Positions 30,548 through 48,647 of a DNA stretch of 64,000 nt are shown here, piece by piece. Position 1 is the stretch's first letter, and each line of letters starts with the position of its first letter. The stretch is from NCBI GenBank assembly GCA_010015805.1, contig ML978127.1:1860001-1924000 (forward strand). The letters run 5' to 3'. The notes under the pieces are model-generated. The model saw nothing but the letters and a program-made list of their open reading frames with translations. It had not been told where the DNA came from and ran no database searches. The DNA is from Rhizodiscina lignyota. Lineage: Eukaryota. The position numbers and the translations under genes are program-made.

Positions 30548-32873
30548 ATGGCTGAGGACACGCCTCCGCAGCAGCGGAGTAACATGTCGCTCGTGCCATA
30601 CATTCAAAGCGATTCTCAAGCAATAGTTCTGTAAGGCACTCTGAACTATATATAACCTTCCTTCTATGGAGCAATACTAATCTCGAGTCACTGTGTCTAG
30701 CCGCCACGGTTCTGCTGTTGTGCTTTACGACCATCAGTCGCGTCAAATCTCACTCGGTCGCGACTCGTCATACACATCTCCCTCTGCGCAGAGCTCCGCG
30801 CTCTCGCACGCCCGCTGTCCCACATGTCACCGTCCATATCACGACGAATTCGACCATGACCTCGATCCTGCGACAGATGATCAGCAGGAAGCCACCTTCA
30901 CAGACCCAGACTACTTCCAGCTCCTCCACCGAAGCCTTCCACAGTCCCAAACTTCCACTCGACCACCATCTCCGGGACGACAATCCCCAAGAAGAAGACT
31001 ACCGCTTGCTGCAGCTGCGACTGATGAAGAGGATGAACAGAACAGCAGGCCAACGAGAGCGGTGAGCGAAGGAGCGACATTGAGACCTCCAGCTGGAGCG
31101 GAATTCATAGGCAGTGCTCCCGATCCGAGCGACACCACTGCTCAGGGTATATCAGCACAAGCCTTCTCGCCCAACTACTTCCGGCGGTTCTTCATCGTAG
31201 AGCGCGAGCTCGGTCGCGGCGGTAAGGGCGTCGTCTTCCTAGTCAAGCACATCTTGGACGATGTCTTCCTTGGACGCTTCGCATGCAAGCGCGTCCCAGT
31301 CGGCAACGATCATGAATGGCTTAAGAAAGTGCTGGTTGAGGTACAGCTGCTCACGAATCTCGCTCATCCGAACCTCGTGCAGTATAAACATGTCTGGCTT
31401 GAAGACTACCAGATCAGTAATTTCGGGCCCAGCGTGCCGTGCGCATTTATACTGCAGCAGTACTGCAATGCGGGCGATTTGCATAACTATATGCTCGATT
31501 CTGCAAGGACGAAAACTACGACGCAGCAACTGAAGGACAGAATGCGACGCCGCTCCAAGGGCCAGCCGGAGCCGCCTCATGATCTGACAGGCCCAAGGCG
31601 AATGCATTTCGAGGAAATATTTTCCTTCTTCAAGGACATTACAGCTGGCTTGCACCATCTTCATGCTAACGGCTATATACATCGTGACCTTAAACCCAGC
31701 AACTGCTTGCTCCACCGCAATGAGACTGGACACATTCGAGTCCTAGTCAGCGACTTCGGCGAAGTACAAGTCGTTTCTGCTACTCGCAGAAGTACTGGAG
31801 GCACCGGCACCATCAGCTACTGTGCACCAGAAGTACTACGTCGTGATCCAGTAAGCGGCGGCCTCGGCAACTTCAGCACGAAGAGCGACATCTTCAGTCT
31901 AGGTATGATCGTGTACTTTATGTGTTTTGGACGGTTACCATACAAAAGTGCGGATCAGCTGGCAGAAGAGAACGAAGATATCGAACAGCTTCGCGCAGAG
32001 ATCGCCGCGTGGGTTGGCTTCGATGACCACCAGAAGCAACGTACAGACCTTCCGGACCGGCTATACAAATTTCTCAGGCGCTTGCTTTCCCTCGATCCGA
32101 ACGAACGTCCCAGCACGGACGATATCCTTCAGAATATTGGCGGGGGTAACGACATCGACGATGCGGGCATATCCGCGTCCGTTCCACATCTCTTCGACGA
32201 CATAAAGTCGCGATTCTCTAGTCTTGACAGCCCGAGTCCCACTCCGCAGCGGATGCAATCAGAAAGACGAAACTCTGCTCTGCAGCTTGGTAACAATGGC
32301 AGCCCTGTCCACCACAAGCGCCAACAGTCGTCACGATTGCGACCGACTTCGCCAACGAAATCCATTCGTCGAGAAGATAATGATCCGCACAAGGCTTATG
32401 TTGAAGATAGTGACGAGGATGTTTTCTCAGACGCACAAATGGACAGCAGTGTCATTCTACGCGCTCGAAAAGCTGAGCGAGGTAACGCGTCAGCTCCAGG
32501 CTCTCCCACTAGATCTCCTCAGCGACTTCTGCTCCCTCCACCGCCGACGCTCTCGACAAGAATAGCTCGCTTCTTCTCCGACTCGTTCAATATAGGCGCA
32601 CTAAAAGTACTGCTATTCGTCATCAAATTCCTCTCGTTACTCCAGCCCTGCGCTCCGTACGCCCCGAAGGCGATCCTTCTATACCCACTCCTCGCGCTTG
32701 GTGCACTGGACTTTGTTCTGCTACCATATGGCTATACACATTCTGAGCATGGGCATGGCGGGCAGGACTTGCAGATTTCTGGAACTCTCCTGCTTGTGCA
32801 TTTGGGCGTCATTTTACTTGCTGGCTGGTGGGACAACTTGTGTCCTACACGGCCAGAGATGTCTTGGGGCTAG
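30548..32873 (+). CDS. IKS1: IKS-family Ser/Thr protein kinase with C-terminal hydrophobic segments
   Basis: Exon 1 (MAEDT...MSLVPYIQSDSQAIVL), intron 30631-30700, then RHGSAVVLYD, CPTC, LGRGGKGVV, FACKRVPVG, HRDLKPSN, DFGE, GTISYCAPE, SDIFSLG. Confidence 0.88.
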
Positions 32874-34190
32874 GACCAGATCCAACTGGAGTTCTTCGTA
32901 ATGGCTGGCTTCCTGGTATTTGCATTGCGACACAGTATACAGAAGCGGTTCATGAGTTTATGCTTGATGAGTTGACGTCTATACCACCGACTGTAATAAT
33001 AGGCCACAAAAGTACGTAGTTGATCGTATCTATATGGAAGTTGCTTTGTATGTAGTCATATCTTCGTGTCTAACTAGCCCCAATCTCCTTTGTGCAATGA
33101 CTCTTCTCGCGAAACCGCAGAGTGTTGTCGTTGACTGTCACGTCGTGCGCCGCCCTCGGGGTCTCGACAAATCGGACACGCTCGACCGTCCTCTTGTCAT
33201 CATCCTCACCCTCTTCATTCTCTGCCCCTTCTGATGGGCTCGGCAAACTACTCGCAATTTGAACCAAGTCTCTCTCTTCTCCACTTCCCTACCTTTCAAC
33301 TCCAGCGTCGAACCAAAAGTCGCCATTTTCGCCTTGGCAAAGTTGTTCGCTCTCGAAGTACTTGAAGTATGGTGCCAGTTTAACTCGGCACGACTAGAAA
33401 TCTTTATTTCTACGGCTGTGAGATTATAGAATTCGCATTAAATGGTCTCAATATCAGTCGTATCGTTACTGGTTGTGGATTCTCGACATACAAACGTCCT
33501 CTTTTCTGATTGGCCCACTCTCGCGTCCATTTTGGGAATACCCCTGTCAGTTTGAGAACCTCATGCTTCACTCGAATACACCATGGTCCGAAGAATGAGC
33601 CAAAACACTCAAGCGTATATATTTTGCGCCACCTTGAAGCACTGAGCAAACAGTGCCTGTTGAGAGTGTACTAGAAACTTCTCAAAACTGAAGCCACGTT
33701 GGCGCCCTGGCGACCATGCACCCAAATAAAGGTCCCATTCACAGTGACTTCGCATAGATGGAAATCCACGGCAATGAGGCGCCACAGCGCTTGTGAGTCG
33801 CGCATATGATGTCTACACAGACGGCCTCCCGCGAAGTTTCGCAGTTGTGATGTCACGAACCGCCGTTCGCCCCAAAGTGGGCCTCCCCATTCTCACCACC
33901 AGAACCTCTTTGACCAGAGCCCAAATACCAATTCTCGCTTTCACATCCGGCTCCTCCCTTATGTTGCATGGATGAGGCTTGCTGTTGTTGTTATGGTGCC
34001 TTGGTTCTCGCCCTCGCGTGAGTTCGCCGCAGGTATTCACCACCCACCACGAGCATTGTTGAAACGCGCTAACGAGCTGTCACCACGCGTATCCGATTGT
34101 AACCTCAATTTCCACGGGCAGATACGGCTGTCACAGACAACGCCGCCGTACCCAATCTCCCCGAAGTTTGCCCGGCCCCAATCTCAAGAG

Positions 34191-34198
34191 TATTTATA
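34191..34198 (+). promoter_or_regulatory. TATA-like element (TATTTATA) upstream of the structured ncRNA
   Basis: TATTTATA followed by a long pyrimidine-rich tract typical of fungal Pol II start regions; no credible protein ORF follows. Confidence 0.4.
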
Positions 34199-34229
34199 CT
34201 TCTCTTCCCTCCATCTTTCTTACAACTCT

Positions 34230-36261
34230 TTCCGCCTCCACAAAGTGCCCCCGCCACCAAAGTCTTTCCACACCCTTTCTCTCCCCTTCCCAACCAAAAC
34301 ATATCATGTACCCTTCTTCCCTTACTCTTCCTCTCCTAACAAAAAACACATTGTACTTTCCTTCACTTGTTAATCATTGTTGTTGACAATCGCGTCTTGT
34401 TTTCATGTTTATCGCGTCACCCTCCTCCACCACAACATCATCACCACCTTATACATGTTGTCACTTCACTATCCTTCACCAGACAACATCATCACCACCT
34501 CTTGCATGTTGACGCTTCACTCCCCTTCACCACAACAATATCATAGCCGCCTCTTGCTTATCACCGCTACTCTTCAAACTTCAAACACCTTGTATCACTC
34601 GCACACATTCATGCCTTCCCCAACAATGCTCTTTCTCATGTTGTCGTTGATCAATAACACTTATGTTTTTCTTTGCTGTTTCTCCGAATCAACTTGCTAA
34701 CCCTTGATTTCTCAGGCAACATCCAATCTCATCTTGCTCAAGCTCTCGCTCGCAGAGGCCGTCCACCCTGCTTTCCGCTCGTCGCATCAACCATCAAGAC
34801 ACATTCACTGACTTCACCAACCAGATCGAGTCAACTTGCCAGGATCAGAGGCTGGGGGAGGACCAAGCCTGGCCTCGTCCGGGAGGGCCCCGTCCGGGGG
34901 GTACTTGCTCGCAAGGCGCTGCAGATCGGTCCGCCGGTTTGCAGGTCTATGCGTTGCAATTGCCTTGTGCAGTGCCGCTGGCCTGCGACAATTGACAGTT
35001 CACAGTGTTAGTCCGACACTGTGAGCTGAGATGCGTGTGCCACTACCACGGTCACAAACCAGTCTACCAGAAATTGAAGGCTACCGTGCCCAAATTCGTC
35101 CGGAAACGGCTTGTTTGGGATCCGGGTCTGCCATCGTGCTTACTACGGGTGAAACGTAACAGACTTGTCTGTAGCTGGGGTCACTGCTTGCATACCCGCT
35201 GCGCACTCTCCGTGGACTCAGCCGGCAGACCTGGGTGGTATCTGACATAGGCAAGCCATTTAGCGGAATGGCAAATCCGAGCCTGTTGCAAGACGCATCG
35301 CGTGCGGGTGGCCGAACCAGAGAAGGGCCGGAGGCAGCCCAGCGATAGGGGATGACAGGAGCGGATCCTCGACCTGTGCTGGAGTCTAACCGATGGTACA
35401 CACTCAGAGCTCGGAGGCCATAGACCCGTTGGAGAGCGCAATTGAGGATCCGGGGTCCTCGGGCTGGGTAGACGCCCAGGGGGCAGTGGTCGCCAGCCGC
35501 ATTAGGAGGATGGGTTTTGGGGGGGTGGTGAGCTTCGGCCGAAGCAACTGTAAGACTCCCTTTCCTGTTTGCACTCACCTCTTCCCAGCGGCCTCTGCGA
35601 CTTGAGCTTGAGCAAACGATGACCACGAACTTGATGCCTGGGTGCATCCCCTTTTTTTCATTTCGACTTCTGCCTTGTGCGGGAGCTTGACGAAGAATGA
35701 GAGTTTGGTCGACTCGGTTGGCGAGGTTTAAATATGGAATATCCATGGTGTTGAGTTTTTTCGTATCGGATATGCCACACCCACTAGGGTTACATAGCTG
35801 CTTTCTGTGTGCCATTGCATCTAGATTAAATCAGACGAGACTCGGGTCACGATCAATATTTAGTAGATCATGTTCTGGATCATGAATCCCTCTGTTGTGA
35901 TGTTGAGAATACTGAGAGACGTGAGAGCTGACGTAGTCCGATGCGCGTCACGGTCTACGGAGCAACGGCATTTCCAGGATTCCAAAGTTAGAAAGAGTGA
36001 TGTATAGACTGAAGTTTCCCAACCCTTCTGTCCCTGATGCTAGAGACCTGTCACTTTAAATGCACTTGCAACGTGCCCGACAGCTTGATGGTGAAAGATC
36101 AACGCGCGTGTCAATCCTCGCTTCTCAAGCATGGCACCAAGTCAATCGCGACTCAACAACAAATTCTTCGTTCGGCTTGAAGGTTCACGTTTGAATAATG
36201 TGCATAGTTCATCGTCCTGGCTGTAAGAGACGACACGACGTTGTCGCTCGCCTGCACTTAC
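34230..36261 (+). ncRNA. Large structured non-coding RNA, candidate telomerase RNA (TER/TR); ends approximate
   Basis: CTAACCCT at 34697-34704; perfect helices 34734-34745/35604-35615 and 34750-34761/35589-35600; many internal hairpins whose G-U pairs point to the + strand; U7 tract and candidate pseudoknot 35644-35703; ATAAGT at 36262. The structured RNA itself is well supported, the telomerase identity only moderately. Confidence 0.6.
34428..34557. repeat. Degenerate tandem repeat, ~51-bp period, ~2.5 copies
   Basis: CAACATCATCACCACCT...CATGTTG...CTTCACT..CCTTCACCA starts at 34433 and 34484, with a partial third copy at ~34536. Confidence 0.8.
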
Positions 36262-37289
36262 ATAAGTTCGCGGCGCCTGGCCTTCGGCTTCTTTGCCTGT
36301 TGCGGCATAGCGAGCAGCAAGCTCACTCCTCGCAGAGCGCCTTCAGCACTGGCTTCGGTTCTTTTGCGTAGAAGGTAATGTGGATTCTCTGATCGCTACG
36401 ATTGAACATTGCGCTAATCTTTCCATGCTAGACTCTCTGATCGTCTAGAGTCCAATGTCAACCTAACAAAATTGCCCTCGACGCGCTCCGCATTCCCAGC
36501 TTCACATACATCCTCGCGCGACGCGCTATCACCATGCCTGGATAATCGATTCCTTCCCCACATGCCAGGAATACAGTCCATATCTGAAACAGTGAGGCCA
36601 GATAGTGGCAATAGTGTGGTGACGGATACATATGAATCTGTAGAGGGCAAGGGCGCTTCGTGAGAGAATCTGAAGAGCTCGATACGGATGTTCAGGCCAA
36701 AATCCATGCCATTGAATTCTCATGTCCCTATTTCGAGGCCCTTCCTGTTCGTTCAATGTCGGAATAGGCCCAATCGCTGTATATTCTCGCCAAAATGACA
36801 TCATGCTCACATCTGTTCTTGTCAGATCACCATGCTCCGAAATGATCATTCACCGCAGTACCAATGCGCTAGTATGAAAGATGTCGATCAATACTCGCCC
36901 AAACTTGCTCGCTCTGTGTTCGACAGGTCGAAGAATCACGTACGGGCGCTAAGTTGAAGCGGTGCCACAGGTCAAGCAGTCTTCTCTGTGTATTTGCACC
37001 ACCGCAACACCGACACCACATGGATCAGACTATGCTCGTATTGGCGCAACATCGATGTGTGCCCTTAGTTGTGCTCAGCTACAGCTTAATACATAGCTCG
37101 GCGAATATGGAGATGTGACACAGTGTAGCTTTCAAGAGCGATAAATACGACGAAATGGTGACACCACCATCAGTACTTCTTCGTAATTACTGCTTAGGAG
37201 ATGGCTATATATACCAAGGTATGCCTCGCTCCCGAGTCTCCAAGTCATCGTTAGACCCACTCTTGAAAACGTCCATCAATCCGTCCACA

Positions 37290-37732
37290 ATGTTGACAAA
37301 GGTCAGGCAGTCCTCATTCTTCGTGGAGCGTGCACACTGATCCCTCGGACACAGATCCTCTACCCACTCCTCCTCGCTGGAGCTTCCCTTTCCGCTGAAG
37401 CTGCTACTTTCGAATCGCTCAGTACCCGTGACACCTGCACACGATTATTCGGCGTCGCCACCTTCTCCAACACCAAATGCCTTGGCAATGGCACTCCTAA
37501 GGTCGTCGGGTGGAACGGTAACGTGGCGGTCAATGTGTGTCAGCAGAACCAGGCGGCATTTAGCAGTGCAATCGGTATACAGCTCGGGCCTTCGAAGGAT
37601 GGATGCGTCCTGAGCGCGTATTCGGACACGAAATGCGCGACAAAGGCCTTGTCGCAGACAGGTAGCCTGCTGACAGCAAGCAATTGTGTGACTGCCGCAA
37701 GCAAAAGCTACAAAATTACCTGCGCAAAGTGA
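37290..37732 (+). CDS. Small secreted cysteine-rich protein (129 aa, effector-like)
   Basis: Exon 1 37290-37301 (MLTK), intron 37302-37354 (GTCAGG...CTGAT...CAG), exon 2 ILYPLLLAGASLSAEAA (signal-peptide-like)...ITCAK*; 7 Cys; TATATA at ~37207. Confidence 0.8.
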
Positions 37733-37857: not shown

Positions 37858-39499
37858 TTACAGATCTTCGTGAATGTGTGGTATGCCTTGTCGGTCTCGA
37901 ATCTTCTCTCCTCTGAACCACAACCACAGTAGCGGGAAAATCGTCAGCCCATTTATCATGCCGAGCACCGGGAATGAGATATTCCAGCCTGAGTGCTCTC
38001 CAAACGGAACCGCATAAAAGCCAATATTGAAGGCGAAAACTATCAAAACATCAGCATCTTTGGATTTCGTCTCCAAGCACCAGCTGCACATACCAGACTT
38101 GTAGAGATTGATGACAGCGCCAATCTCCGCTGACTGCGGCTTGTAGCAATCAGTCGTGTACGTATATACCATGGTCGCGCCAGTCTGCAATCCGAATCCA
38201 GCCACACCCATGCAAACTGCAAGTGTAATCCACGGCTTCTTGGCTTCGACACAAGGGCCATATGCAATGACGCCCGCCAGTAACGTCAAGCAACCAGGAA
38301 GAAGTGCCAACCGAATCTCCGGTTTGCGGTACCCGCCATTCCTCTTCGCGTACGCGTTGATGATCAGATCACTCACCCATCCTGCGCTCGCCTCGCCGAT
38401 CATGCAGCCTATTGTTAGCGGAACGCCCATGAGCAGCCCTGTCTGTGCGACGTTGAAGTGGTAGAGCTCGGCCGCCAGGTGCGAACCGGTTACTGCGAAG
38501 AGAGCGCTGCCATACGTGTTGGCAGTCATCCAGTATATCGATGGAAGAGACACTGCCCAGTACTTGATCATGCGGTATGGAGTGATGAAGTCACGAAGGG
38601 TGATCCGACGGTCGACTATCTTGCCCTTCCAGCCGAGCTTCGAGATGTACGAGGTTCCTTCCAGCGTACTGAAGTCCGTGCGAGAGAAGAGCGTTTCCGG
38701 GAAAGTGAAGAGCAGGATGAAGAGCAATCCGCCTTGTAGGATCCCGGGTATGTAAAAGCACCATCGCCAACTGAGATTTTGCGCAATGTAGCCTCCAATA
38801 ATTGGCGCTAGATGGGGTCCGTTGTTTACACACAACCTGATGGGGTACGTCAGCGTCACAGTAGAAGCAGAGGGATTTTGGGGATTTGCAAAACAGGAGA
38901 CTGACGTATATATTCCCATGTACAGTCCACGTTCACCCTGAGTGAAAAGATCGCAAATGGTCGCAGCACCAATTCCTAAGGGGATTCCACCTCCGATACC
39001 ATAGAAGACACGTCCAGTGATCACGCCGCCATAAGTCGCCGCGGCGCCCGATCCAATCTGAGCAGCCACAGCGATGGTCGTGAAGAAGATGTACAAGATC
39101 CTACGGCCGTACACGTTGGAATATGGCACGATGAACATGGGAAAGATGCCGCTGAACAGAATGTATACTGTCGTGCAATAGCTTGCCTGTGCTTATGGTC
39201 ATCAGAAGAAATGGCGCAGAATTCTCACCACTCACTTGCTCGACTGTGATATGGAGGTCCTTAGACATAATCACGTACGCCGGATTGATGAGAGCTGAGC
39301 CCATCTGAGCGAGGAACCCAAGGCCAGACACCATAAGGGCGATGTAGACTTTTCCCCAATACGGCCAGTTAAGAGGGTCATCTTCGTGGTCCGAAGGCTG
39401 AGGGTCCAAAGGGATGCCATTGCGGTCGAGCTTCAACCTGGGGCCCTTGTGCACCTCTTCAACTTGATCGACCTTTTCCGTGTCAATTTTCTCAGACAT
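37858..39499 (-). CDS. MFS transporter, multi-exon
   Basis: PQPSDHEDDPLNWP N-terminal motif, YGRRILY (motif A), ICDLFTQGERG, SWRWCFY, PETLF, KPEIRL; multiple hydrophobic segments. Confidence 0.92.
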
Positions 39500-42770: not shown

Positions 42771-44255
42771 TCAAATGGGACTTTCCCTTCGCCAAACCAT
42801 CCGTCGCTGACTTTCCGCGCCGAAGGATGGCGCCTCTCTCGATCCGTCGTCGTCATCCTCCTCCTGCTCGCGCCCCGTGGCGGCTTTCGTCACCGCGGAC
42901 CGACCGACTGTGGGAGCGACGTTTATCGGATCGCTGTCTGAATAAAAGGATTCCGGAAAAGTGGGATCTACCTTTCGATTGTACGCCCTTACAGCGCCGC
43001 GAACCATTCCGGTTTGGTTGCTCTCCATGTCATACTGTTTGAACCCGTTTGGGGTAGGTGTCTTGATGTTCTGTAAAGGGTACGAGCCGTTGCGGCTTGC
43101 CTCCCTGACTGCGCTCCTGTGGGCGCTTCCGTGGCTGTTGCTGTTGCTTTGGCCGTAATCGATATCCGTCTGGACAAGGTGACGAGCGCTGAGCACGAAC
43201 ATTTTGCCTGTGTCGAAGCTGATGAGGAAGGACTTGAGGTTGGGGACAGTAGCGGTGAAGAGACTGAGGACGAGGTGGACGCTTTGAGAAGAGATGGCGG
43301 AGACATAGTTGAAACTGCGATTGGAGTGGTGGAGGTAGTCCCTAATGTATATGATGTTGAGAATGGCAGTGATTACAAGACTAGAGAGCGGTTAGCAATG
43401 ATGTATGCAACTCGGTTGAATGGACTCACGGAAGGCGGAAGGCGAAGGCAGCGATGACTTTTATTTTCATCGCTCGCTTGATGTGAATGCCCCATATAAC
43501 CATGAAGGCAAGGGCAACGATGACCAGCTCTCCGATTATCTCCGTGACACTGACGGCAGCCCATCGAGCAACCTGAACGAGGACAATTAGTCGATATCAC
43601 TCGAGACGTTAGGAATGGTGACAAACCTGGCCTGGACAATGGTCATTGCCGTCATCAAGGAGATGCGACGAGCTGCAGCCGACAGAAATTCCCAGTATAG
43701 CCCCGAGGCCCCAAACGGTAAAGACGGCGGCGACGACTTCACAGACACGGCGACGCTTCACCATGTCCTCAGCGAAGAGTCGACGAGTGAGCAAGACGAC
43801 GGAGACTTTTGAGAGAGTGAGTGTCAAGAATAGTAGTATGCGGCCTGCAAAGAGTGCCTATTGAGGCTGGGTCAGTGACGGATGACAGTTGTGTCCAGTA
43901 GGGAGGGCGTACTTTGCTCGCGCGCTCGAGTTCATCCTCCTTGACTCGAAAATTCGACCTGCCAAGGCCATTGGACAATGCATCGTAAGTCGTAGCTAGA
44001 GTTCCATAAGCCGTCACCTGCGTTTGTAGTGAGTTTGCCTGTGACGATGCGCAACTGACGCGGCCGGAAGAGACGAACCGTAGCAGCGAGAAAGACCCAA
44101 TCGTCCGCCCCAATCGTTTTCCGTTTGATGAGATAGCGGATAAGCAGGACCAGAAATGCATAGACGCCGCAGAGAATGGACAAGATCCAGACGATGCCTG
44201 CGTGATCAGTTGGAGTAACCGGCGACCAGCGGTTTTCGCTATCCAAGTTGGCCAT
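42771..44255 (-). CDS. Pth11-like/rhodopsin-like fungal integral membrane protein, multi-exon
   Basis: DHAGIVWILSILC...IRYLIK..IGADDW, LSNGLGR, LSKVSVVLL, WG...GC exons and a Ser-rich cytosolic tail. 3' end approximate. Confidence 0.75.
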
Positions 44256-46201
44256 GGACGGCTATCTGGGTGGAGGTGTCGAGTCGCCCGGGTCGCAAGA
44301 TCACATCCTTCTCCAGCCGGTCCGAGCGGATTCAGAGAGTCCCCGTAAGATCCGCAGAGTGGAGGCAGGCGCGTTGTCGAAGAAGATATATACAGCAGGA
44401 GTTGGAGGAGGAAGTGGTGCGCATGCCAAACCTTAAGGAGGGAGATTGAGCGTACGAACAGGCGATAGATGCAGGGGACGCCCGCAAAGGAACAGCCAGG
44501 ACCCGTCTTTTGTATGTCTGATTAGGGCTTAGGCACTCGCGCAGTGATCAACCACTGCACGACTCATGATATTTGCCATGGTCGAATGAGGAGGGGGGCC
44601 AAGACTCTCGACAGGCTGGTGTACCTGTCGTTCCCTGAATCCTCATCCGCGTCGCCGCCCTTGTCCGGGACCGCTTCCGCGGACGCCACTGCGCTGGCTC
44701 CCAGTCCGTTCCTGTCGCGATGGCGCCTGTCGGAGGCATCGTCGAGATTGTCAGGAACTCTGCTTCCTCCAGTACCCGTCGATCTCCCGGGCTGAGACGC
44801 TCATCAAATAACGCAATCCAGCGGCGACTGGCGACTGAAGTAGCGTTGGGCAGCACGCCTAGCACTCTACGCGAGCGGCAGAGCGGCCTCCAGAGCTGCT
44901 CCAAAGCTGCTCCAGACGGGCTCTGGAGGGCGGGCGGCTGACTCGCGGCCAGTGGGAGCGCAGCTGGGCCGCGAGAGGAGCAGGGCAGGCACGGCAGCGG
45001 ATAAAGGACGCCACGCTGCCCTTGGCCTGGTTGTTTCATAGGCATGCGCATGATTTTCCTGGAGAAATGCGGACAGCCATCACGCGCTCGTCTATCGTCG
45101 AGTACGGTACGGTCCCTCAGGCACAGAATTCACCCCTGGCGTGCCACAGGCACAGGCTGACAGAAAGCGTGGTAGCAGGCCCGTGGATTGTGTGCTGCTG
45201 GCGTCGAAAATAGCCAGCTGCAGCAGCATCGCCAGGCCGCGAGTCGCTCGCTCGCCGGCCGGCCAGCTCACGAATCATGTGCCGATGACAGCGCATCGGC
45301 AGCGGCACCCAAGCAGTTAGAGCAGCGTGGAAGGGCCGACTAATTGACTTTGTGCCGCAGATCTAAGGGGGTGCGGGAGTCGGGAAGAGGGGCGGGAGCT
45401 CGGGAGTTGGCGAGCGCCAGCTGCCAAGGGGACGTCCAGCAAGCGCAAGCGACTGCAATGGGTGAGGCTGACATGCCACCGAGAAGCTCCATAGGTGCGC
45501 TCTATAGGTGGGCTGGCCACCTCGAAACTCGGCCCACGCGAGGTGGAGCGTCGAGACGCAACTCACACAGCACTGATTCAGATCCAGCACGCGGGGCATG
45601 CACCATCCACCATCAGCACTCTGTTGAGCTTATTATCGAGCACTTCCTCCATCTCGACGCCGTGCCACGCCCGTTCCTGCGGCGTTCTTGACGGACAGGC
45701 GGATTCGGCCCATGCCTGAAGCAGCGCAATTTCGTCTCCAATATATGGCGGGCAGGATTCCCCGATGCCACCAAGCGCACTCGCGTGAAGCCAGAACCAC
45801 TGCTCTGGAATCCATCATCTGAGCGCGTCCAGACGGTCCCTTTTGAAACCCATGCTGTAGTGTCTGTGGCCTCTAATCCGCATGAGTACACGTGCAGAGA
45901 TAGGCGCGCCAACGACCCGGTCCGCTGGGACGGGGTCGGGCGAGCAAGCAATCACGTACATGAGTGTAGCACGGCGAATTTATCCAACAACCAGCTAACG
46001 CGGGGCCTTGACGCTGCGTCGTACAGTAGTGACATGCCCGGTGTAACGCGCGATAAGGGTTGCAATCCTCCTTCCTGAATGGAGCGTCGACGGACGAGGG
46101 GCCACTCCGCTTTGACAACCGCACCGAGTCCCAATCCTGACTCGCGCCCCAACCATCGCTCTCGCGGACCTGCGGTGAAATTGTCTGGGGCGCTCTTCTT
46201 C

Positions 46202-48193
46202 ATGGACATCAAGGAACCTGAAACACACGCCGCTGCTGCTCTTCAACATGCTGTCGCCCGCCATGGAGAGGTTGGAGCAACACCACACATGCTTGGCTCG
46301 TCGGAGGACCAGCGCGACATGTTTCGCATGCGCAAGGTGCAGCCGCGGCGACCGCTCGGCGAAATTTGAAAGAGCATGGCGTCAACGGAAGTATAGAGAA
46401 TTTCTCTTTTTGCCATGTTTGGTTTTTCCATGCTGCTGCTAAGCACTTGCGAGGCTCAACTCGGGTCCGCAAATCGTATCGGCCAACGAGCCTAAGCGAT
46501 TCATGCATCCGAAACTCTCCCCGTCAGCATTGAATCTGATTATCGACTCAGCTCCACATGCTCCAAAGATATTTAACTAATGGATCGATCAGCGTTGCGA
46601 CATTTGCTCTGCTCAATGCGGGAACGGCTGGCCTTCTGTACATATATCTCGCTACCTGGGTCAGTTTCGGAGCTGTCGTAGCGTCGATGGCAGAATGCCG
46701 TCAAATGACGCACCTTCGCTAATCTCTCTCCTGAATCTTGCCTGAATCCATGACCTGAAGCATCTAGGGCCTCGACTGCTGTAGACAATACCATTGGGCC
46801 TCAGAGTACGCTCCTCCAGGCTCGCAGCGTTTCCTCAGTTACCTCGTCGAATGGCTGTGTCATGGATTGGCAGTCAGGGGCAGCATCCACTGCGTTTCTC
46901 GCTGGCACGGAGATCCAAGGCCTGATCGTCCTGAATCACCTCGAAACATACACGTTTGAACGTTGGCATGGGACACTTATCGTCATTGCTATCACTCTCA
47001 TCTGTGGTATCGTAAACTCCATCCTGGCAAAGACTCCCTTTCCTGGAATGGTGCGCTGTAATACTGCACGCTGTTGGCCTCTTCGCTATCATGATTACCT
47101 TGCTGGTCCTCACTCCCAAGTCGTCTCCCCACGATGTCTGGACACTGGTGCTGGATGGGGTAGCACCGGCCTGTTGTGCCTGATTGGCACTCTTGCGCCA
47201 ACCACATCTATCATGGGCTCAGATGCGGCAGCCCATATGTCTGAGGAGCTTCTCGATGCGAGCCATACTTTACCACAGGCTATGCTGGCAACCCTCGTGA
47301 TAAACGGTACTCTTGGTTTCGTAATGCTTGTGACGTTTGTATACACTAGGTGATGTTAACAGTATCATTTCTTCTCCGACAGGACATCCGTCTATCCAGG
47401 CATTCGCGAATGGTACTGGCAGTACATCAGGTGCATGTCATGACGACAGTCATGATGGTTCTCTCCACGTTCGGCTGTCCCACGAACGTCGTTTCGGCGT
47501 CCTGTCAACTCTCTCTTCGCGTTCGTCCGGGATCAAGGGACGCCGTTTTCGAATTTTGTGGTATATGTATGTGTCCAAGTGGACATACTTTCGCTCCATG
47601 GGCTGATTGCACTCTCAGGTGCCGCCAGGATGGGACATTCCACTAGACTGCGTGCTCATCACCGTGACGATTCAAATCCTCCTTTCCCTCACCAACATCG
47701 GCTCCACAATAGCATTCAATCAGGTCGTATCGTGGGGCGTATGCGCTCTAGTGACATCGTACCTGATCTCCATATCTTGCGTTGCATGAAGGCGCTTCAA
47801 GAACGGGCGCTTCTTCCACGGAAGTGTGATCTTGGTAGAGCAGGGCTAGCGATCAATGTCTTTGCCATATTGTTCCTGATCCTGGATCTGCTGTTGTGAT
47901 TCTTCCCATGGCAGCCAACTCCAGTACTGGATAATATGAATTGGTCGATTTTGATGTATGGAGGTGTGATTGTTCTGGCGCTGGTATGGTTCGCCTTGAA
48001 GGGCTGCAAGATCTATGTCGGGTCAGTGGGATATGTGAGGAAGAATGTCGAAGGAAATGGCCATCTTTGGCACTTGTTGCTCGATAAATTTGACATGATG
48101 CAGAAGAAATTCATTGAGAGTGAGGACGTGTCGTGCCAATCCGGCATGACCTCTGACGACCTGGCTCTGAAAGACTCCCGCGTTTTGGTCTGA
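46202..48193 (+). pseudogene. Disrupted amino-acid (GABA/choline-type APC) permease
   Basis: Recognisable blocks (DQRDMFRM, QYHWASEYAPPGSQRFLSYL, WQSGAAST, FERWHGTL, GSDAAAHMSEE, NIGSTIAFN, MNWSILMYGGV) are spread over changing frames, with in-frame TGA stops at 47787-47789 and 47897-47899 and no matching intron signals. Confidence 0.8.
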
Positions 48194-48647
48194 CTGGAAA
48201 TTAGAAAATGTGCAATTGGACTCAAATCATGCCCGGTCTTCATTATTGAGTTTGCTTATACGAAGGTAGCGAATTGCCATTCGACATTCACGAGAAACGT
48301 ACGATGGACTATTTTTGTAGGGCAGGCAGATCCCGCGGACACGCGATCCTTGTCTAGGCGCGCTAGGCTCAGGGTTAGCGAGAGGCCATGCGAGCAGGCA
48401 TTTGATATCGACCCACTCGGCTCTCCATAGAAATTATTCTGTACCACACGACTCTCACTGCTATACTTCTCCTATCTTGAGAGGAATTAGAGTCGACTGT
48501 ACGTTCTGCAACGATATCACGGAAACCCGCAGCGAAGCGGTACCTGCCATGTTCGCGCTGATCATATAACTTGATCAAGCGGTACGGGGCGTTGTGCTCG
48601 CCCTCGACACTCTACATTTTCAAACTGAACATACTCTCATCACCATA

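Follow-up and report, generated by a model that had tools for sequence, protein, structure and literature searches.

The best reading of the intergenic segment at 34230-36261 (+ strand) is a gene for the telomerase RNA of the Dothideomycete concerned, at a chance which we rate as about even; all positions refer to the window, i.e., the entire 64-kb stretch of DNA that was analysed. The proteins encoded in this window are 99% identical to those of Rhizodiscina lignyota. If this is true, the locus belongs to an already known kind of RNA, the telomerase RNA of the Pezizomycotina, and the order and spacing of its presumed parts—TATA, template, arm and AUAAGU unit—fit those of the published Neurospora and Aspergillus telomerase RNAs. 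A telomerase RNA locus had been proposed in the first-pass annotation; layout, arm, non-coding status and AUAAGU unit speak for it, while the failure to find a U-rich pseudoknot, a boundary helix, IKS1 synteny and an Rfam match speaks against it. Motifs, arm, lack of coding capacity and single-copy status are seen in the sequence itself; that the locus is transcribed, where its RNA begins and ends, that the template is used and that there are a pseudoknot and a CR4/5 junction is inferred.

According to the proposed mechanism, RNA polymerase II would initiate downstream of the TATA/CT-rich tract, and CUAACCCU (34697-34704) would act as a minimal, rodent-like 8-nt template for TTAGGG. The arm of ~930 nt that follows would be the fungal-specific arm between template and core, dispensable for activity. 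Finally, the first splicing step at AUAAGU (36262) would form the 3' end, with the A at intron position 1 blocking the second splicing step.

Non-coding interval, putative promoter region and candidate template

The candidate is located in an interval of ~5 kb on which two genes converge, with the 3' end of an IKS1-like kinase gene at 32873 and that of an MFS transporter gene at 37858, and the central part of this interval is without coding signal. Its longest open reading frame (ORF), of 244 aa on the minus strand (35081-35815), has neither a Pfam match nor a homologue, a Pfam search of the interval's ORFs returned no matches, and the codon-usage scores of the ORFs in 33810-35830 range from -0.12 to -0.01, as opposed to 0.12-0.26 for the real genes of the window. 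The earlier statement that no credible protein ORF is present is thus borne out, and the candidate interval is non-coding and single-copy.

A TATA-like box, TATTTATA, is read directly at 34191-34198 (+), where it had been reported, and is followed by a strongly C/T-rich tract; together, they form a putative promoter, comprising core promoter and start-site region, and the GC skew over 34000-34799 amounts to -0.44 to -0.68. The putative 5' leader (34230-34696, +) is G-poor and nearly unstructured, with 300-nt windows folding at just -18 to -39 kcal/mol, and contains a 51-nt tandem repeat in 2.4 copies (34419-34544). Pairing of this leader with the 3' region was considered and rejected, since 99 of 100 shuffles were at least as complementary.

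The candidate template, CUAACCCU (34697-34704, +), would provide six templating and two alignment nucleotides for TTAGGG. With 8 nt, it represents the bare minimum of a template that exceeds one telomere repeat and repeats at least 2 nt at its ends. Its DNA form, CTAACCCT, is present exactly as first described; it occurs three times in the window versus 1.11 expected (three are reached by 12 of 100 shuffles), and the six telomeric 8-mer permutations give nine matches on both strands, which is about the uniform expectation. Telomeric 9-mers are absent from the 64-kb window; hence, the 8-mer on its own is at chance level. Another telomeric 8-mer, TAACCCTA, is found at 35785 on the opposite strand. 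When the full-length RNA is modelled thermodynamically, the template pairs with 35716-35725, leaving six of its eight nucleotides with an unpaired probability of ~0.01, which is weak counter-evidence because such predictions are unreliable for an RNA of 2 kb.

The sole local candidate for a template-boundary helix is a weak 6-bp hairpin, GUUGAU/AUCAAC (34646-34693, +), recognised by eye and ending 3 nt before the template. Being AU-rich and having a 36-nt loop, it is not a "stable helix" of the Aspergillus type, so that the lack of a strong boundary helix noted previously holds. An accessible template combined with a stable boundary helix was accordingly not found at 34697-34704, the pairing counting as a weak negative.

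Two further pairings of telomeric 8-mer and ATAAGT in the window were discarded. One, with CTAACCCT at 48371 (minus strand) and an ATAAGT downstream, is antisense to a + strand amino-acid-permease-like gene; the other, a minus-strand reading of the locus itself (TAACCCTA at 35785, ATAAGT at 34664), is disfavoured by the weaker minus fold and the missing branch point.

The long arm and the 3' region

Seven nucleotides downstream of the candidate template begins a branched, GC-rich arm of ~930 nt (34711-35642, +), which is closed by ~37 bp of helices. The predicted fold contains the helices 34711-18/35635-42 and 34729-33/35618-22, followed by two collinear helices of 12 perfect pairs each (34734-45/35604-15 and 34750-61/35589-600), a 24-bp perfect core that encloses 827 nt. 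Single 12-mer helices are at chance level in the window; the composite of two 12-bp helices has its sole instance, in 1.03 Mb of fungal DNA, in this arm. Against shuffled sequences, the fold reaches z = -4.34 on the + strand, where none of 45 shuffles attained its stability, and -2.07 on the - strand; the folding tool's own run gives -4.57 and -1.64, respectively. The self-closing arm claimed for 34711-35642 is real, with helices in place and with rarity and fold stability far beyond chance; it is a non-random, + strand-specific feature of the locus and provides the long helix or arm just 3' of the template that is looked for in such RNAs. By analogy, it would equal the dispensable template-to-pseudoknot arm of N. 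crassa (nt 463-1288). In a contig set of 34.2 Mb, the arm is single-copy at ≥80% likeness, and the window contains no second copy; given that, in that set, a 45-nt hairpin at its 3' base is the sole repeated part, a transposon present in many copies can be discounted for the arm.

This 45-nt hairpin belongs to the region for which a U7-containing pseudoknot had been suggested. The U7 tract is indeed situated at 35652-35658—one of just two runs of at least seven T on the + strand of the window—but the pseudoknot did not stand up: in the minimum free energy (MFE) fold, the tract leads a simple 17-bp hairpin (35652-35697, +), and this is a dispersed repeat, of which the assembly has three more copies, at 4-6 mismatches, on three further contigs. 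The pseudoknot of non-yeast fungi, as far as set out in the sections of PMC3592445 used here, is of the H-type, its upstream loop being U-rich and its helices contiguous. In four descriptor searches, no H-type pseudoknot having a U-rich upstream loop and contiguous PK1/PK2 helices was found: at U7, there was no solution; at U6, there were 4-bp GU-rich solutions and nothing else; a relaxed descriptor gave no solution at the locus, though one in 50 of 100 shuffles; and dropping the U-run requirement yielded no U-rich pseudoknot. As the descriptors permit no bulges, a real but irregular pseudoknot could be missed.

Concerning CR4/5, which had initially gone unidentified, a P6.1-like hairpin, CUCG-GUUGG-CGAG (35713-35725, +), is now found, with four Watson-Crick base pairs, a 5-nt loop that fits NUNGN, an A immediately 5' and a three-way junction in the MFE fold of 35616-35830. 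Three such hairpins occur in 34230-36400 versus 1.4 expected by chance, the background density being 0.63 per kb and strand. The hairpin competes with the template pairing and with another hairpin (35701-35715), it lies unusually near the arm, and in the junction at 35713, the dispersed repeat hairpin would have to serve as "P6" and a helix with seven G-U pairs as "P5". A compact P6/P6.1 junction was sought 3' of 35760, and none was found; the fold stability of the 3' 600 nt is nothing unusual.

The locus closes with an intron-like unit (36262-36335, +) consisting of AUAAGU, a branch-point-like CUCAC and CAG. The ATAAGT is at 36262-36267, as claimed, and CTCAC (36322-36326) and CAG (36333-36335) are read directly downstream of it, so that the sequence elements of an AUA(A/C)GU site, a branch point and a 3' splice site are all present. 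From this arrangement, the mature RNA's 3' end is predicted at 36261. ATAAGT occurs seven times on the + strand of the window; the AUAAGU of this unit is 1,565 nt downstream of the candidate template. Across 1.03 Mb, two of 60 telomeric 8-mers are followed by such a unit at 1200-1900 nt, i.e., the candidate locus and one that is antisense to a permease gene.

Homology and comparison with known telomerase RNAs

Rfam presumably includes an ascomycete telomerase model, and pseudoknot and junction sequences of Pezizomycotina have been published as conserved enough for homology search. No match to a telomerase family in Rfam was obtained at the gathering threshold, nor at E ≤ 10 with pieces of 151-751 nt, although its models may be insensitive to this lineage. 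Synteny was assessed on 80 metagenomic loci encoding IKS1 relatives of 41-61% identity, and among these related loci, the linkage to IKS1 proposed at the outset was not seen. Upon comparison by blastn, they had no similarity to 34230-36335; the two weak matches (E 0.28) are both at 33193-33307, outside the candidate interval. In the 80 loci, the DNA downstream of the kinase showed no template that was consistent among them, and an Rfam scan of seven of them gave no match. At the protein level, one relative has an IKS1 of 81% identity. Telomeric runs of 12-13 nt in two loci (L020 and L041) were rejected as templates: they precede the start codon of IKS1 by ~220-250 bp and are, hence, promoter elements.

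The likeness to the N. crassa RNA, as documented in the parts of Qi et al. 2013 (PMC3592445) that were consulted, is one of layout and sizes. That RNA comprises 2049 nt, with the template between nt 434 and 462, at a distance of ~450 nt from its 5' end, and the 826 nt that come next (nt 463-1288) are dispensable; here, the RNA would measure ~2032 nt if it started near 34230, the candidate template follows ~467 nt after the proposed start, and the long arm directly after it encloses 827 nt. On the evidence of the same parts, a TTAGGG-type template is common to both, and both are without a canonical Sm site. In contrast, the candidate template has 8 nt instead of 9 nt, no counterpart of the core-enclosing helix 1 and the boundary arm is demonstrated, the PK1/PK2/PK2.1 pseudoknot was not found, and the sole P6.1-like hairpin is ~100 nt after the arm, whereas P6/P6.1 in N. 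crassa follows at ~540 nt.

Aspergillus telomerase RNAs, to the extent covered by the portions at hand of Kuprys et al. 2013 (PMC3603654) and Kannan et al. 2015 (PMC4299874), are encoded at intergenic, ORF-free loci of ~2 kb, as is the candidate, and carry AUA(A/C)GU 5' splice sites. They share with the candidate a 3' signal made up of AUAAGU, branch point and 3' splice site, and the 3' end would come ~1.57 kb after the template as in the Aspergillus RNAs, that of A. oryzae being given in those portions as 1567-1775 nt downstream. Differences, within that coverage, are a U-rich, Sm-like tract (CGGC3-5U7-12) that shortly precedes AUAAGU in Aspergilli and that the candidate lacks; the branch point, GCUAACU versus a weaker CUCAC; the template of at least 9 nt; and the stable boundary helix ~2 nt from the template as well as the U-rich/A-rich pseudoknot strands, neither of which was found at the candidate.

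A short template has a parallel outside the fungi. In rodents, the telomerase RNA template is 8 nt long with a 2-nt alignment region, so that rodent RNA and candidate are alike in a minimal CUAACCCU-type template with two alignment nucleotides; however, the rodent RNA is of the vertebrate H/ACA type, ~400 nt in size, and unrelated to the candidate in biogenesis and architecture. The shortened mouse template is also mentioned in the consulted part of PMC3592445.

Alternative readings and significance

The most serious competitor, which we regard as possible yet distinctly less probable than a telomerase RNA, is a long non-coding RNA, structured as a whole or in the part seen here, that is unrelated to telomerase, with the 8-mer and the AUAAGU standing by coincidence beside a selected fold. 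It gains from the fact that the arm is the sole statistically solid feature, that the telomeric 8-mer is at chance level, and that the locus yielded no pseudoknot, no boundary helix and no homology to a telomerase family; furthermore, the opposite strand of the interval also carries an 8-mer and an ATAAGT, and thus such motifs arise easily. It is weakened by the combination of an 8-mer 7 nt from an arm that is rare, on the strand that folds better, with an AUAAGU at the published distance, which is jointly unlikely and, by estimate rather than computation, expected well below once per genome, and Rfam gave no match to any further known class of fungal RNA of comparable size. That the interval is no gene at all, but intergenic DNA in which an ancient inverted duplication or a mobile element in decay has left its relic, with motifs present by chance, appears rather unlikely. 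The dispersed 45-nt hairpin repeat adjoins the 3' base of the arm and, hence, the locus bears a trace of mobile or repeated DNA; also, the minus strand beats shuffles too (z -1.6 to -2.1), as expected of an inverted repeat at the DNA level. However, the arm is branched and not a plain foldback, the + strand fold is clearly better, and neither the 34.2-Mb set nor the window holds a second copy at the likeness given above. Relics of repeat-induced point mutation are not expected to be GC-rich, and the arm, with a GC content of 0.54-0.62, is unlike them.

The 8-mer has been suspected of being part of an intron end, with GCTAAC...CTCAG (34696-34715) serving as branch point and 3' splice site of an unannotated protein-coding gene. 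GCTAAC with CAG 12 nt further on is indeed a typical fungal intron end, and the upstream CT-rich tract resembles a 5' UTR or promoter; nevertheless, a gene of this kind is the least probable of all readings and very improbable in itself: a search for an upstream 5' splice site, GTNNG[TC], in 34200-34700 found none, which deprives the suspected intron of its donor, + strand ORFs between 34658 and 35830 are all ≤117 aa with negative codon scores, and none of 84 six-frame peptides (≥40 aa) matched the 80 fungal loci, in addition to the lack of Pfam matches. Improbable, if less so, is a telomerase RNA of unusual build, i.e., one that has either an 8-nt template without the canonical U-rich triple-helix pseudoknot and with a P6.1 junction beside the arm, or a longer template, CUUGCUAACCCUUG (34693-34706). 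In the latter case, the 4-nt terminal repeat of CUUGCUAACCCUUG would specify a non-canonical 10-nt telomere repeat, much as Aspergillus oryzae has one of 12 nt.

Telomerase RNAs evolve fast, for which reason the annotation of most fungal genomes omits them. For the Aulographales, an isolated Dothideomycete lineage, a validated locus would inform on the variation of template, pseudoknot and CR4/5 core. Should the locus not encode a telomerase RNA, the arm would still be a rare, strand-specific, single-copy structured RNA candidate; if its odd features are real, the 8-nt template, the lack of a recognisable pseudoknot and the repeat hairpin inserted into the core would help to define what a fungal telomerase minimally requires.

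Genomic setting and coding capacity

The candidate (34230-36335, plus strand) lies within fungal DNA in a 5-kb gap between two genes that converge tail to tail, a plus-strand IKS1-like protein kinase (ORF 30693-32870, gene end 32873), whose best named relatives are from Dothideomycetes (~54% identity), and a minus-strand MFS transporter gene ending at 37858. The first-pass annotation had found no credible protein ORF here, and coding signal is indeed absent from the central part of the interval. Codon-usage scores range from -0.12 to -0.01 for the ORFs in 33810-35830 versus 0.12-0.26 for the real genes of the window; neither a Pfam match nor a homologue among 5.8 billion clustered proteins was found for the longest ORF (244 aa, minus strand), and none of the 84 six-frame peptides matched in the comparison with 80 fungal loci. 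No canonical 5′ splice site was found in 34200-34700; GCTAAC...CAG is therefore no obvious intron end, and the proposed template is not evidently removed within an intron ending at 34715.

The supposed "gene desert" holds, 3′ of the candidate, an orphan ORF (37187-37729) without a Pfam family, the sole database protein matched being a 129-aa hypothetical protein of Rhizodiscina lignyota (Dothideomycetes, Aulographales), at 99% identity across 70% of its length. This match assigns the window to that species or a very near relative. Further downstream, a GC-rich stretch (43770-46530) contains numerous overlapping ORFs in several frames without codon-usage signal, a 22-nt inverted repeat (44929-44950/45235-45256) and no telomeric 8-mers. 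A plus-strand ORF at 46754-47353 weakly matches amino-acid permeases (27.7 bits versus a cutoff of 27); since the ORFs around it are short, 46750-48300 probably holds a permease gene that is either decayed or split into several exons.

Synteny next to IKS1, proposed earlier as a check, yielded neither similarity nor shared gene order with the candidate among 80 IKS1-linked metagenomic loci, which are too distant (41-61% protein identity). Two of these, on related metagenomic fungal contigs, carry 12-13-nt telomeric runs (AACCCTAACCCT type; L020 3869-3885, L041 613-630) that precede the start codon of IKS1 by ~220-250 bp and look like telomere-repeat-type promoter elements.

Motif layout and the ~930-nt arm

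All motif positions of the first-pass annotation were reproduced on the plus strand: a TATA-like box, TATTTATA, at 34191-34198; the template-like 8-mer CTAACCCT at 34697-34704; a U7 run at 35652-35658; and ATAAGT at 36262, followed by CTCAC (36322-36326) and a CAG ending at 36335. Between the box and the 8-mer, a G-poor tract harbours a 51-nt C/A/T-rich tandem repeat (34419-34544; 2.4 copies, 80% matching) with a CATGTTG-type motif in every copy. A telomeric 8-mer alone is not beyond chance: the window contains three copies of CTAACCCT (1.11 expected), nine matches to telomeric 8-mers of all permutations and no telomeric 9-mer. In the same interval, a second telomeric 8-mer, TAACCCTA (minus strand, 35785-35792), together with a minus-strand ATAAGT at 34664, shows that such motif pairs easily arise.

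The spacing is close to that of published telomerase RNAs. In Neurospora crassa (2049 nt), the minimal core described retains template-holding nt 434-462 and lacks the adjoining, dispensable nt 463-1288 (PMC3592445); in the candidate, the 8-mer lies ~467 nt from the proposed start, and the arm begins 7 nt after it. The Aspergillus papers give a template-to-3′-end distance of 1567-1775 nt for Aspergillus oryzae (2035 nt) and describe Aspergillus telomerase RNAs as ending at an AUA(A/C)GU 5′ splice site accompanied by branch-point and 3′ splice-site sequences (PMC3603654, PMC4299874); here, an AUAAGU lies 1565 nt downstream of the 8-mer. As an empirical control, 60 telomeric 8-mers in 1.03 Mb were scanned for ATAAGT 1200-1900 nt downstream, which was present for four and intron-like for two, namely the candidate locus and one 8-mer antisense to a permease-like gene.

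The arm itself is beyond chance. It contains 827 nt enclosed by two collinear helices, each of 12 perfect bp (34734-45/35604-15 and 34750-61/35589-600), and additional closing helices extend its base to 34711/35642. Single perfect 12-mers occur in the window at about the chance rate; a composite helix of at least 20 perfect bp is unique to this arm within the 1.03 Mb of fungal DNA examined. Against dinucleotide shuffles, the plus strand folds with z-scores of -4.57 (0/20 as stable) and -4.34 (0/45), the minus strand being modestly better than shuffles (-1.64 and -2.07). The arm is branched, GC-rich and, at ≥80% likeness, single-copy in the 34.2-Mb contig set of the one public run containing it, which may itself be the source of the window. 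Its rarity and strand bias, together with these properties, argue for a selected plus-strand RNA structure rather than a transposon or simple DNA foldback.

Core elements expected of a telomerase RNA

The U7-containing pseudoknot proposed earlier folds as a plain 17-bp hairpin. Copies of these 45 nt (35652-35697) with 4-6 mismatches are present on a further three contigs of the assembly, in both orientations and amid unrelated flanking sequence; the element is thus a short dispersed hairpin repeat. Searches with descriptors of the published pseudoknot type, in which the upstream loop is U-rich and the helices are contiguous (PMC3592445), returned none at U7, none without the U-run requirement, and only poor 4-bp solutions at U6. 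In place of a boundary helix, only a weak 6-bp hairpin lies 5′ of the 8-mer, which the full-length fold model pairs with 35716-35725.

For the CR4/5-type junction (P6/6.1; nt 1826-1864 in N. crassa, PMC3592445), one candidate was found and no further ones: a P6.1-like hairpin, CUCG-GUUGG-CGAG, at 35713, with an A immediately 5′ and, in the local fold, within a three-way junction. Three such hairpins are present versus 1.4 expected, the partner helix would be the dispersed repeat hairpin, and the distance from the arm is ~100 nt, rather than several hundred as in N. crassa. No telomerase family was matched in Rfam, whatever the threshold or piece size, a result whose weight hinges on ascomycete-model sensitivity. 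Since telomerase RNA cores are published as conserved enough within Pezizomycotina for homology search, the failed core and family searches count against the candidate.

Weighing of the readings

The layout, the spacing and the rare arm favour the telomerase-RNA reading; the short template, the missing pseudoknot and boundary helix and the lack of a family match weigh the other way, as does the ambiguous junction. The rare arm, the telomeric 8-mer beside its 5′ base on the strand with the better fold and the intron-like AUAAGU spaced as in published RNAs would often be expected together in a genuine telomerase RNA, and we estimate, without formal computation, well under one such arrangement per genome by chance. 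We consider the chances of a telomerase RNA about even, and the identification is not near-certain. Another structured non-coding RNA, compatible with the arm and the missing core but leaving the joint arrangement to coincidence, is a rather unlikely yet serious reading. Non-genic DNA would accommodate the chance-level motifs, the strand-biased arm speaking against it, and is distinctly improbable; a coding gene, given the codon-usage scores, is very improbable indeed. If confirmed, the locus would add a member to the telomerase RNAs of Pezizomycotina, possibly one whose core is unusual.
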